From Dehalococcoidia bacterium (lineage in GTDB: Bacteria > Chloroflexota > Dehalococcoidia > Bin125), in contig CAXXRD010000002.1 of assembly GCA_963663895.2 (NCBI GenBank), positions 320,001 to 384,000 of the forward strand: DNA of 64,000 nt, given 5' to 3'. Each line of letters begins with the position of its first letter. Within the stretch, counting starts at the first letter, position 1. Positions 13,464-27,575 of the stretch are shown piece after piece. The position numbers and the translations under genes were made by a program. A model generated the notes under the pieces. The model saw only the letters and a list, made by a program, of their open reading frames with translations. It did not search any database and was not told the DNA's origin.

Positions 13464-14318
13464 CTACCCCACCCCGCGCTGGAAAGCCGCCTCGGCGGCG
13501 GCGTCCAGGGCCGTGCGCAGGGCGTGACCGTCGCGGGCGAGGACGCGGAGGTAGGCGCCGCAGCCGTTGGGGAGCAGGGAGGCGCCGGCCCAGGCGTCCA
13601 GCGGGGCGACGGCCGCGCGCAGATCGCCGACGCACCCGCCGTCAAACGGCGCGCCAAGGGCGTAGACGGCGCCCTGGGCGGGGAAGCGGCGCAGGGTTTC
13701 GCGCAGCTCGGGGCGGCGCTGGGGGTCGGCGATGCGCTGGCGATCGACGGCCCGCGGCTCGCCGTCCGCGTCGCTCACGATCAGCTCGCTCTCGAAGAGC
13801 CGGAAGAGTCCAGGGGCGGCGGCCTCGGGCGCGTGATGGAGAAAGGCCTCCCGCACCACCGCCCGCGCGCCCGGCGCAAGCTGGACCCGGGTGGACGAGG
13901 CCGCGCGGGCGTCCGGGAACAGGATCAGGGGGTCGGCGGAGTACTCCACGCATCCGGAGGCCGCGACCCGCAGATCGACGTGGGTGGCCGCCAGCTCCCC
14001 GTCGCTGCGATGGATCTTGGTGGCGGCCTGCGTGACAAGCCGGACGCGGGCGGCCTCGCCGATCTCCACGTACAGGGAGAGCCGGTCGCCGGCGAAGAGC
14101 CCGCCCGACACCGATTGCAGACAGAGCGTGGGCAGATCGGGGCGCTCGGGATCAAGGTAGAGCGGCTTCACGACGTGGTGCGGGTACTCGCAGTACTGGT
14201 GCACGAGCGTCGTGCGGCCGTCCGCGTCCCGCTCGAAGCGGAGCTCCGCGCGCGCCTCCAAACCGGCATCGACGGGGGCCGGAGGCGGCCGGCCGAGCGC
14301 CGCTTCCGCCACGGTCAC
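13464..14318 (-). CDS. ureD: Urease accessory protein UreD/UreH
   Basis: [33 protein letters not shown] start overlaps the ureG stop (GTGA). Confidence 0.88.
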
Positions 14319-14950
14319 CGCGCCGCCGCCAGCGCCCGCGCGCGCGCCGCGTCGATCTGCGCCAGCACGCCCTCCAAGCCCTCGCCGGTCAGGCAGTTGG
14401 TATAGGCGACGGGGCGCTCCCCGCGCGCGCGGGCCAGCTCCCGCCGCATCCGATCGAGGTCGGCGCGCACGTAGGGCGCGATGTCGATCTTGTTGACCAC
14501 GAGCAGGTCGCACTGCAGGATGCCGGGGCCGCGCTTGCGGGGGATGTCGTCGCCGGCGCCGACGTCGATGACGAAGAGCCAGGCATCGACGAGCTCGGAG
14601 GAGAAGGTGGAGGCGAGGTTGTCGCCCCCGCTCTCGATCACGACCAGGTCCAGGCGGGGGCAGGCGCGTTCCAGCCGCCGCAGCGCCTCGTTGTTGAGCG
14701 AGGGGTCCTCGCGGATCGCCGTGTGCGGGCAGGCGCCGGTCTCCACGCCCAGCACGCGCGCCGGGTCGATGAAGCCGCGCCCGCGCAGGCGCTCCGCGTC
14801 CTCCTGCGTGAGCAGGTCGTTGGTGATGATGGCGATCTCCCAGCCGCGCTCTTGCAGGCGCGGAACGAGCGCCTCGATCAGGGCCGTCTTGCCGGAGCCG
14901 ACGGGGCCGCCGATCCCCAGGCGCAGGGGCCGGGCCGCGCGATCCGTCAT
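14315..14950 (-). CDS. ureG: Urease accessory GTPase UreG
   Basis: [39 protein letters not shown] overlaps the ureC stop. Confidence 0.96.
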
Positions 14951-25534: not shown

Positions 25535-26199
25535 GCTGCGCGGAGTTCAGTACGCGCGCGATTAATCGCGCGCTTGCGGAGCTGCCGGACGGATCGAGAG
25601 TTTCGATCACCGAGCCCCAGGGCAGGCACAACCTCGCCGTGGGCCTGCGCAACCAGATCACGATCACGATCGCCGGCAACGCGGGATATTTCATCGGGGG
25701 GCTGGGCGACGGGCCGTCGATCGTCGTCAACGGTTTCGTCGGCTGGTCCGTGGGTGAAAACTTGATGAGTGGAACGGTGCGGGTGCGCGGCAATGCCTCA
25801 GAGAGCGCGGGGGCATCGAGCCACGGAGGATTGGTCATCGTCGACGGCGACGCCTCCTCGCGCGCCGGGATTTCCTTGAAAGGGGGCACGCTTGTGGTTG
25901 CGGGGGACGCCGGGCACATGAGCGGATTCATGGCGCAGGCAGGCACGATCTTGATCGGCGGCGATGCCGGCGCAGGGCTGGGCGATTCCCTCTATGAGGC
26001 AGTGATCTACGTCGGTGGGGCCATCCGATCCCTCGGAGCGGATGCCCGGGTGGAAGAGCTGACGGAAAGCGACGTTCAACGCGTGCGACAGCTGATCCAA
26101 GAGACCGGTTTCGATCACATCGATCCCCAGAACGTGCAACGCGTGGCCTCGGCGCGCGCGTTCTACCACTTCAAGGCCGTAGCCGGACACGCGTACTGA
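25522..26199 (+). CDS. mgsB: N-methylglutamate synthase subunit B (GXGXG/GltB3 domain)
   Basis: GRHNLAVGL, ENLMSG, RAGISLKGG, GHMSGFMAQAG, LGDSLYE. Confidence 0.9.
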   Translation: MVTLSCAEFSTRAINRALAELPDGSRVSITEPQGRHNLAVGLRNQITITIAGNAGYFIGGLGDGPSIVVNGFVGWSVGENLMSGTVRVRGNASESAGASSHGGLVIVDGDASSRAGISLKGGTLVVAGDAGHMSGFMAQAGTILIGGDAGAGLGDSLYEAVIYVGGAIRSLGADARVEELTESDVQRVRQLIQETGFDHIDPQNVQRVASARAFYHFKAVAGHAY

Positions 26200-27575
26200 T
26201 GGCCCGCCCCTTGGACGAACCGCGCCTCCCCTACGACGCCAAGCGCCACAGTCACACGTTTCCGCCGGAGGCGATCGCGCAGATCACCCGGATGGCCGAA
26301 GTGGGCCGCTACGAGATCCGGGGTGGGGGCAGCAAGCGCCCGCTGCCCACATTCGACGATCTGGTCCTGCTGACGGCGTCCGCGTCGCGGTATCCGTTGG
26401 AGGGTTACCGCGAGCGCTGCGAGACGCGGACCGTGCTGGGGGCGCGGGCGGCGGCCAAGCCGATCACGATCGAGATCCCGATCACGATCGCCGGCATGAG
26501 CTTCGGCGCACTCTCCGCCAACGCGAAAGAGGCGTTGGGGCGCGGCGCCAGCGAAGTCGGAACATCGACGACGACCGGCGACGGGGGCATGACGGCGGAA
26601 GAACGGCGTGCATCCAAGCTCCTCGTCTACCAATTGCTGCCCTCACGCTACGGGTTCAACCCCGCCGACCTGCAGCAGGCCGACGCGGTCGAGGTGGTGA
26701 TCGGGCAGGGCGCGAAGCCGGGCGGCGGCGGCATGTTGCTGGGCCAGAAGGTGAGTGACCGCGTCGCGGAGATGCGGACGCTCCCCGCCGGCATCGACCA
26801 GCGATCGGCGAGCCGGCATCCCGATTGGACCGGGCCCGACGATCTGCGTATCAAGATCGAGGAGCTGCGCGAGGCCACAGGCTGGCAGATCCCGATCTAC
26901 GTGAAGATCGGGGCGACGCGCACGAACAACGACGTCAAGCTCGCCGTCGCCGCCGGCGCGGACGTGGTCGTGGTGGACGGGATGCAAGGCGGCACGGCCG
27001 CGACGCAGGACGTCTTCATCGAGCATGCGGGGATCCCCACGCTTCCCGCGGTGCGTCTGGCCGCGGAGGCGCTGCGGGAGATCGGAAAGCAGGACGAGGT
27101 GCAGCTGATCGTGTCCGGGGGCATCCGGTCGGGCGCGGACGTCGCCAAGGCCTTGGCGCTCGGCGCCGACGCCGTCTCGATCGGCACGGCCGTCCTGATC
27201 GCGCTGGGCTGCAACAGCCGCACCTATTTCCAAGATGGGCGCGAGATCGACGCCACGGCGGACTATCACGCCCTCGGCACCGAGCCGGGCTACTGTCACC
27301 ACATGGAGTCGGGCCGCTGCCCGGTGGGCATCGCCACGCAGGATCCGGCGCTCGAGCGCCGCTTGGATCCGGGCTGGGGCGGCCGCCGCGTCGCCAACTA
27401 CCTCCGGGCGCTGACGATGGAGCTGACGGCGCTCGCCCGGGCCTGCGGCAAGTCCAACGTCCACCATCTCGAGCCGGAAGACCTCGCTGCTCTCACGATC
27501 GAAGCCGCCGCCATGGCCCGCGTCCCCTTGGCCGGCACGAACTGGATCCCTGGATCGGACGCGCCCGGGCCCTAA
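26199..27575 (+). CDS. mgsC: N-methylglutamate synthase subunit C (FMN-binding glutamate synthase family)
   Basis: SRYPLEGYRE, AGMSFGALS, TTTGDGGM, GQGAKPGGGG, RHPDWTGPDDL, DGMQGGTAAT, SGGIR. Confidence 0.92.
   Translation: MARPLDEPRLPYDAKRHSHTFPPEAIAQITRMAEVGRYEIRGGGSKRPLPTFDDLVLLTASASRYPLEGYRERCETRTVLGARAAAKPITIEIPITIAGMSFGALSANAKEALGRGASEVGTSTTTGDGGMTAEERRASKLLVYQLLPSRYGFNPADLQQADAVEVVIGQGAKPGGGGMLLGQKVSDRVAEMRTLPAGIDQRSASRHPDWTGPDDLRIKIEELREATGWQIPIYVKIGATRTNNDVKLAVAAGADVVVVDGMQGGTAATQDVFIEHAGIPTLPAVRLAAEALREIGKQDEVQLIVSGGIRSGADVAKALALGADAVSIGTAVLIALGCNSRTYFQDGREIDATADYHALGTEPGYCHHMESGRCPVGIATQDPALERRLDPGWGGRRVANYLRALTMELTALARACGKSNVHHLEPEDLAALTIEAAAMARVPLAGTNWIPGSDAPGP

Follow-up and report, generated by a model that had tools for sequence, protein, structure and literature searches.

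The DNA described here is a 64,000-nucleotide stretch of the genome of a Dehalococcoidia bacterium, from an uncultured lineage of Chloroflexota (assembly GCA_963663895.2, contig CAXXRD010000002.1, positions 320,001 to 384,000 of the forward strand; hereafter the window), in which a block of urease genes is joined to the gene cluster of the N-methylglutamate (NMG) pathway of methylamine use. The genes gmaS-mgdABCD-ureF-ureAB-ureC-ureG-ureD form one minus-strand run of ~11 kb (13464-24533), in which the widest gap is 66 nt, and the genes mgsABC (24557-27575) diverge from it. The reading that we favour, with a probability of about 0.45, is that a working urease was recruited into a nitrogen-scavenging operon.

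A possible scheme for this recruitment is as follows. A functional nickel urease of a mobile clade would have been captured into the NMG methylamine cluster in an ancestor of these Chloroflexota. It would be transcribed from the NMG promoter region as part of the 11-kb unit, with mgsABC read in the opposite direction, and would hydrolyse urea to two NH3 after nickel loading by UreD, UreF, and UreG without UreE. Methylamine would be converted to gamma-glutamylmethylamide, then to N-methylglutamate, and finally to glutamate and methylene-tetrahydrofolate (methylene-THF). A single control region would thus switch on two routes leading from small organic nitrogen compounds to ammonium and one-carbon (C1) units. 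Judging from sequence, urea may be the physiological substrate and nitrogen status may be the regulatory signal.

Gene content and packing of the run

The run opens with gmaS (23175-24533, minus strand, as for all genes of the run), a member of the gamma-glutamylmethylamide synthetase family that scores 617 bits against TIGR03105 (cut-off 470). Four genes assigned to the subunits of N-methylglutamate dehydrogenase follow: mgdA (SoxB-like; 21829-23108), which is frameshifted in the assembly and whose halves match TIGR01373; mgdB (SoxD-like; 21540-21815; Pfam SoxD and TIGR01374); mgdC (SoxA-like with a GCV_T folate domain; 18706-21543; TIGR01372 at 845 bits versus a sarcosine-oxidase cut-off of 1164); and mgdD (SoxG-like; 18063-18692; Pfam SoxG and TIGR01375). 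Each of the four matches its family but stays below its sarcosine-oxidase subfamily cut-off; the models are Sox-based, none being Mgd-specific, and such scores appear to fit Mgd rather than Sox. The urease block is opened by ureF (17386-18054; Pfam UreF, 1.5e-26, and an alignment of five orthologues) and continues with ureAB, a fused gamma/beta subunit gene (16663-17358; NF009671 at 352 bits versus 243; Pfam Urease_gamma and Urease_beta), ureC for the alpha subunit, of a non-canonical clade (14947-16659; TIGR01792 at 827 bits versus an equivalog cut-off of 680), ureG for the nickel-delivery GTPase (14315-14950; TIGR00101 at 242 bits versus a cut-off of 204), and, as the last gene of the run, ureD for a urease accessory protein (13464-14318; Pfam UreD, 2e-36). 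UreD, UreF, and UreG are all present and intact, and both the P-loop and the CPH motif are visible in UreG.

On the plus strand, the NMG synthase is encoded by three separate genes with GATase, GXGXG, and GltS-type flavin mononucleotide (FMN) domains: mgsA for the amidotransferase subunit (24557-25534; Pfam GATase_6/7), mgsB for the GXGXG subunit (25522-26199; Pfam GXGXG; 70-97% identity in relatives), and mgsC for the glutamate-synthase-like FMN subunit (26199-27575; Pfam Glu_synthase, 1e-92). Alignment to the mgsA orthologues of two relatives (G005 and G006) begins only at residue 31-32, and the true start probably lies near 24647.

The genes are tightly packed on both sides of the boundary between the two systems. 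On the NMG side, gmaS and mgdA are separated by 66 nt, mgdA and mgdB by 13 nt, and mgdC and mgdD by 13 nt, and mgdB overlaps mgdC in an ATGA. At the boundary itself, the mgdD stop lies 8 nt before the GTG start of ureF. Within the urease block, ureF and ureAB are 27 nt apart with a GGAGG between them, ureAB and ureC are 3 nt apart, and ureC/ureG and ureG/ureD overlap in an ATGA and a GTGA, so that 4-base overlaps occur at three junctions of the run. A consensus scan of 12800-27800 returned no promoter-like site and two terminator-like sites (5.3 expected by chance), an uninformative yield, with no terminator-like site separating the genes. The packing is consistent with co-transcription. A first-pass annotation, made from the letters of the stretch, had described this single gmaS-sox-ure run on the minus strand with mgsABC divergent from it, and the open reading frame (ORF) listing, the Pfam and NCBIfam scans, and the reading of the junctions agree with it. 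Its statement that the junctions overlap or nearly touch holds for ureC/ureG and ureG/ureD; for soxG/ureF, the corrected ureF start leaves the gap of 8 nt. Its view that there is no room for a promoter before ureF stands with that gap.

That correction concerns the reading frame of ureF. A 226-aa ORF at 17349-18029 was considered as ureF and rejected as an off-frame artefact of a genome with 68% GC. The true frame has its GTG start at 18054; its product is matched cleanly by Pfam UreF and can be aligned over the full length with four orthologues.

A -1 frameshift interrupts mgdA in a C6 run at about 22545 (22545-22551, minus strand), and the two halves match TIGR01373 positions 1-178 and 170-406 in different frames. 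The stretch is contained in 20 public sequencing runs from 11 studies, none on record as RNA, and contigs from four of them (X1 to X4) were compared with the window. One extra base behind 22545, which gives C7 and restores the frame, was found in X1 (5/5), X3 (18.4/18.4), and X4 (21.4/21.4); run X2 (~4.6x depth) agrees with the window at 22545 and has no extra base. Since three runs restore the frame and the gene is uninterrupted in 4/4 relatives, the frameshift is a low-coverage error or a rare allele and not a sign of pathway decay. An assembly chimera at mgdD-ureF was also considered and rejected, as contigs of all four compared runs bridge the junction; one bridging contig, from a different study, is 19 kb long with ~97% identity. 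Runs that share 38-49% of sampled words with 17300-23200 include several labelled sponge metagenome and one labelled coral metagenome, which is a weak hint to the habitat.

The host genome (2.37 Mb, five contigs, 91% complete) has a single copy of UreC and no other urease. No UreE_N or NicO family match was found across this 91% complete genome, which extends to the whole genome the earlier remark that the block lacks ureE and a nickel transporter. Two further glutamine synthetase (GS) genes and a 1544-aa GltB are encoded elsewhere for housekeeping assimilation; therefore, the NMG genes appear to be an accessory nitrogen and C1 route.

Conservation of the linkage and origin of the urease

Among 65 genomes of the family, the host included, GmaS was found in six and UreC in five, and a UreF query returned the same five. 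The urease adjoins the NMG cluster in all five urease-bearing genomes and in two layouts, so that the linkage is not peculiar to this genome, as the first-pass annotation had allowed it might be. The layout mgsCBA<>gmaS-mgdABCD-ureF-AB-C-G-D is found in the host, in G001 and G002, and in G011, which belongs to a different genus. A member of a third genus, G005, has mgdDCBA-gmaS<>mgsABC-ureF-AB-C-G-D, with the urease on the opposite arm of the divergent cluster, and G006 has an NMG cluster of the G005 type without urease. In the latter genome, mgsC is followed by genes for a binding protein of the DctP type and for a protein resembling the beta subunit of nitrile hydratase (L012, 13758-15432). 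A metagenome contig (L108) carries a further relative, mgdC-mgdD-ureF-AB-C-G-D, with a UreC of 89% identity. Flanking genes vary between genera, and therefore the conserved unit is the NMG cluster together with the urease. If the enzyme is a plain urease, linkage kept in five of five genomes would imply selection for co-expression. In a sample of 400 genomes of the phylum, which includes one unpublished genome (G097), UreC was found in 66 (best 64% identity to the window UreC) and a GmaS-like gene in 28; the two occur together in a single genome, G448, where they lie on separate contigs.

Downstream of the urease block, a dimethylformamidase (DMFase)-beta-like amidase gene (4526-6694, 722 aa, PF20254, 7 kb from ureD) and a luciferase-like monooxygenase gene occupy 4526-8363 and are kept within the genus. 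Between ureD/orf93 and the luciferase-like gene lies a type III restriction-modification pair (8889-12903; Res 8889-11291, Mod 11299-12903) with a GC content of 0.62-0.65 versus ~0.69 around it. No counterpart is present at this place in the same-genus genomes G001 and G002, and the pair looks like a recent insertion downstream of ureD.

To find the wider clade of the urease, a UreF alignment was searched against one genome per species, which gave 68 loci, and 80 metagenome loci were added. The 68 loci are mostly from Alpha- and Gammaproteobacteria, with others from Binatia, a Methyloligella sp., Acidithiobacillus ferrianus, and Pseudonocardia asaccharolytica DSM 44247. The order ureF-ureAB-ureC is found in 52 of them, and UreC is 72-83% identical to the window UreC in 38. 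The window UreC is ~80% identical to proteobacterial copies versus at most 64% to those of other Chloroflexota. Just upstream of ureF, 60 of the 68 loci have a ureE of ~150 aa that consists of UreE_N only; therefore, the ancestral cassette was ureE-ureF-ureAB-ureC-ureG-ureD. In a maximum-likelihood tree of UreC (69 rows, IQ-TREE quick search, LG+G4), the clade has an SH-aLRT support of 100 and is sister to canonical-loop Chloroflexota ureases, and the sequences of the family nest among proteobacterial ones. These comparisons indicate that the urease was acquired horizontally and lost ureE, and the absence of ureE is a loss specific to this lineage; the clade normally has the gene. Some ureolytic bacteria likewise do without UreE.

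The environmental ureE-F-AB-C-G-D cassette and the window thus share the same order from ureF on, an identical short loop in UreC (an 11-residue motif), and the motif SDSQGMGR. The cassette usually lies behind an amide or urea transporter or regulator; in contrast, the Chloroflexota copies lack the UreE_N-only ureE and are joined to mgdD or mgsC, and in the window mgdD takes the place of ureE. Two more distant groups were seen. A sister group of 15 rows (L022, L025, L027, L028, L032, L033, L040, L050, L035, L067-L069, L073) has 60-67% identity, the order ureF-AB-C-D-G in many members, and a flap with CHL or AHM instead of CHH. Other urease-like alpha subunits of Chloroflexota (L093-L097; G373, G448, G322, G434, G272) have 45-53% identity, and those of L093-L097 have a loop that is still shorter or different, Gly at the Ala363 position, and altered flaps (VAVHRL, LLNHGG etc.).

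The usual neighbours of the clade are Urt/Fmd-type binding proteins (Peripla_BP_5, ~440-450 bits) with ABC transporter genes, NicO, and AmiC/AmiR amide sensors, in many cases accompanied by a CN-hydrolase amidase. Of the 68 genome loci, 7 have a pair of arginase-family genes immediately upstream of ureE, as do several of the metagenome loci; paralogue pairs of this kind were noted in the proteobacterial loci L029, L037, L051, L070, L084, L143, L149, and L180, some with a GS-like gene, and are possibly heteromeric guanidino-compound hydrolases feeding the urease.

An NMG set, full or partial, is directly attached to the urease in 4/68 genome loci and 1/80 metagenome loci. The full gmaS and mgsABC stand beside the urease in 4 of the 68 loci, namely two from Chloroflexota, that of P. 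asaccharolytica, and that of a gammaproteobacterial metagenome-assembled genome (MAG). The gammaproteobacterial locus (L059) reads mgsABC-gmaS-like-ureE-F-AB-C-G-D, with the set 45-69% identical to that of the window; in another locus (L064) only a GS-like gene is present and the rest of the set is gone. P. asaccharolytica DSM 44247 (L031) has a urease of the same clade (UreC 72%) that runs directly into mgsABC-gmaS (61-81% identical), ureF and mgsA being 20 nt apart. Its layout differs from that of the window in the order ureAB-C-G-D-E-F-mgsABC-gmaS, in the retention of ureE, and in the location of mgdABCD (an mgdC homologue) on another contig. Among 151 sampled genomes of Pseudonocardiaceae (one of them, G621, unpublished), that of P. 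asaccharolytica alone has this type of urease; neither G097 nor G621 affects any conclusion. On the UreC tree the NMG-linked cases are scattered over three distinct positions, and the neighbourhood survey that the first-pass annotation had proposed therefore shows a linkage that recurs independently and beyond Chloroflexota.

Glutamate-synthase-like genes occur near the clade urease in other forms as well. In two gammaproteobacterial MAGs (L052, L063) the urease lies beside a GATase, a fused GXGXG-GltS protein, and a GltD-like protein; their mgs-like matches were considered as NMG genes and rejected, the set being glutamate-synthase-like. In L109, L149, and L180 the urease is near a GS-like gene.

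The active site and the possible substrate

The window UreC has every nickel ligand and catalytic residue of canonical ureases. It scores ~680-698 bits to the chains of Klebsiella aerogenes (2KAU), Sporosarcina pasteurii (4UBP/4CEU), and jack bean (3LA4) ureases, and in an alignment with the K. aerogenes and jack bean enzymes the nickel ligands are kept (H134, H136, K217, with its carbamylated-Lys motif, H246, H272, and D360; K. aerogenes numbering), as are the catalytic and flap residues H219, D221, C319, H320, and R336 (KIHEDWG, MVCHHL, AESRIR). UreD, UreF, and UreG accompany it as in canonical systems. The differences are a short loop, Gly363, the fused gamma/beta subunit, ureF in first place, the lack of ureE, and the setting in a methylamine operon. 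The loop that bears Ala167 in K. aerogenes (Ala170 in S. pasteurii) has 15 residues in place of the canonical GGGTGPAxGTxATTCTPG and is 3 residues shorter; it lies in a 19-residue segment of ureC placed by PDB alignments (16123-16179, minus strand), and aligners differ on whether Gly or Val stands opposite Ala167. At 15556-15579 (minus strand) ureC encodes SDSQGMGR instead of the canonical SDSQAMGR, with Gly for Ala363 of K. aerogenes (Ala366 of S. pasteurii).

The canonical loop and Ala are found in 8/8 other Chloroflexota ureases (55-63% identity). The loop fragment matches 31 urease sequences in the PDB, each of them 3 residues longer at this place, and no solved urease structure with the short loop was found among the PDB matches. 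Between a 41-row core clade and eight canonical sequences, 18 columns are fixed differently, 11 of them within the loop. According to a review of the urease mechanism (PMC7433671), Ala170 and Ala366 act through their carbonyls as hydrogen-bond acceptors for the urea nitrogen on Ni(2), the distal urea nitrogen is held by Ala366 and Gly280, and the C-beta of Ala366 contacts the Ni(2) solvent site. A comparison of NMG-linked UreC with unlinked clade members found no pocket residue peculiar to the linked ones. A convergent pocket change in the linked enzymes was therefore rejected, as only the non-pocket column 414 differs, in 2/3 lineages.

The reading as a plain urease is preferred because the catalytic and maturation residues are intact, the equivalog hidden Markov model is passed, and the enzyme is the sole urease of its genome. 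It is preferred also because most clade members with the identical pocket adjoin urea or amide genes and because no pocket change sets the NMG-linked members apart.

Several observations weigh against this preference. In the window UreC, the loop with Ala167/170 and the position of Ala363/366, whose backbone holds the urea nitrogens in solved ureases, are both non-canonical, and the short loop and the Gly are invariant in the clade (53/53 UreC sequences examined). No arginase-family gene was found in the 91% complete host genome, so that no source of urea is evident, and no urea-binding protein of UrtA grade was found in it (best Peripla_BP_5 match 68 bits), so that no importer is evident either. 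DMFase-like amidases lie near the clade urease in three lineages and point to N-methyl amide chemistry: besides the gene in the genus of the window, such a gene stands next to gmaS in P. asaccharolytica (L031, 16700-19129), and in four gammaproteobacterial MAGs (L049, L055, L076, L177) a divergent operon encodes an ABC importer and a DMFase-beta-like amidase with a 113-aa ORF. A second UreC (58-60% identity) is present in 5 of 10 tested clade-bearing genomes, the clade enzyme being the sole urease in the other five, and the one second copy inspected has the canonical loop and SDSQAMGR. A sample of 301 genomes of the order that holds Methyloligella gave a similar picture. A further UreC-length match is present in 21 of the 24 genomes with the non-canonical urease, and the second copies among the matches listed (n=10) are of canonical type with 57-61% identity to the window UreC; since ~63% of the sample has a canonical urease anyway, the enrichment is only modest. 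Among the matches listed in this sample (150 of 228), no UreC of either type shares a contig with gmaS at a distance of 200 kb or less, and all linked cases that were found are of the non-canonical type, in locus searches seeded with non-canonical UreF. A metagenome contig (L115, 5437-14038) carries canonical ureA, ureB, ureC (60%), and ureG, followed by ureE-ureF-ureAB-ureC(80%)-ureG, and thus has both types in tandem.

A rival reading, which we rate second to the plain urease, is that the clade is an amidohydrolase of alkylureas or small N-methyl amides (N-methylurea, possibly dimethylurea or N-methylformamide) whose methylamine would be consumed by GmaS, MgsABC, and MgdABCD. Methylurea would then yield methylamine, NMG, and finally methylene-THF and two NH3. 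The two urea-nitrogen-holding elements are exactly what has changed throughout the clade, and the loss of the Ala366 methyl could make room for an N-methyl group, given the contacts described in PMC7433671; work cited in the same review has jack bean urease already turning over N-methylurea, formamide, and acetamide. The NMG linkage arose in at least three places on the UreC tree and in four layouts, DMFase-like amidases recur beside the urease, a canonical urease often coexists with it, and the host genome is without an obvious urea source or importer. In the order sample, GmaS is present in 14/24 genomes with the non-canonical urease versus 57/277 others, these being related and not independent genomes. 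However, 10 of those 24 genomes lack GmaS at the threshold used, the substrate is read from sequence, and the same pocket occurs in many members beside urea transporters or arginase-family genes without an NMG set. The enzyme is also the only urease of the host and of half of the tested genomes, no paper on bacterial methylurea use was found, and a supply of methylurea in nature would have to be assumed. The first-pass suggestion of a methylamine-releasing urease is thus borne out in part: the packing, the recurrent linkage, and the altered pocket agree with it, but the linked members have no pocket residue of their own and most of the clade lies beside urea or amide genes. Extended to the whole non-canonical clade, as a nickel-dependent alkylurea or N-methyl-amide amidohydrolase and not a plain urease, the idea is less likely than not, though well worth weighing.

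It is also conceivable, but improbable, that the urease and the NMG genes are two arms that share a precursor, with an upstream enzyme splitting an N-methylated compound into urea and methylamine or into a common intermediate; such a compound could be methylguanidine, a guanidino compound resembling creatine, or whatever the DMFase-like amidase and luciferase-like monooxygenase nearby act on. The arginase-family pairs upstream of ureE would suit such a scheme, as would the DMFase-like genes within 10 kb in the genus of the window, in P. asaccharolytica, and in the four gammaproteobacterial loci, and the luciferase-like and beta-lactamase-family genes of the P. asaccharolytica locus, families that are also present near the Chloroflexota modules. 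Nevertheless, a methylguanidinase or creatinase as the source of urea and methylamine in the host was rejected, as no arginase-family gene was found in the 91% complete genome; its single Creatinase_N match is uninformative, since the family also matches in 13/14 control genomes. Conservation of the DMFase-like and luciferase-like genes does not extend beyond the genus, the flanks in G011 and G005 being different; DMFase-like proteins of different lineages have no more than 30-39% identity, and the sole unit conserved across genera is NMG plus urease. A further idea, that the GS-like and glutamate synthase (GOGAT)-like genes merely assimilate the ammonia from urease and have nothing to do with methylamine, is suggested by the glutamate-synthase-like sets in L052 and L063 and the GS-like genes near the urease in L109, L149, and L180. 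For the genes of the window it is unlikely, and as an explanation of the linkage it deserves hardly any weight: genes assigned to all four subunits of the heterotetrameric, sarcosine-oxidase-like MgdABCD are present, GmaS is above the TIGR03105 cut-off, and the genome has its two other GS genes and the 1544-aa GltB. The recruitment of a working urease remains the favoured reading.

Relation to known systems and significance

NMG clusters with gmaS, mgsABC, and mgdABCD occur in methylotrophs and marine heterotrophs. The window resembles them in having all eight genes with the expected domain families and gmaS divergent from mgsABC, and differs from them in the attached urease genes; no described NMG cluster carrying urease was found in the literature. 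The pathway outline used here follows PMC5017803 and PMC10781810. In the full-text literature, subscription journals aside, no description of a urease-NMG operon or of a bacterial methylurea hydrolase was found, in line with the first-pass remark that no such operon was known.

The gene ureC is widely used as a marker of urea use in oceans, soils, and symbioses. The branch described here is widespread and has a loop unlike that of every solved urease, and no assay of its enzyme was found in the literature; its fusion to a methylamine pathway is the clearest genomic hint so far to what the branch might do differently. The question of substrate is directly testable, since the clade is present in cultured P. 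asaccharolytica DSM 44247, where it is NMG-linked, in Acidithiobacillus ferrianus, and in a Methyloligella strain. If the enzyme is a plain urease, two routes of organic nitrogen use have merged in one operon and have been kept together through rearrangement. If it cleaves methylated ureas or amides, it would open a new way into the C1 and nitrogen cycles and bring a new specificity to a textbook family. Should this apply to the whole clade, the Chloroflexota operon, with its counterparts in Pseudonocardia and Gammaproteobacteria, would be the first pathway devoted to turning methylurea, by way of methylamine and N-methylglutamate, into methylene-THF, and many environmental genes now recorded as ureC would be mis-assigned in substrate.

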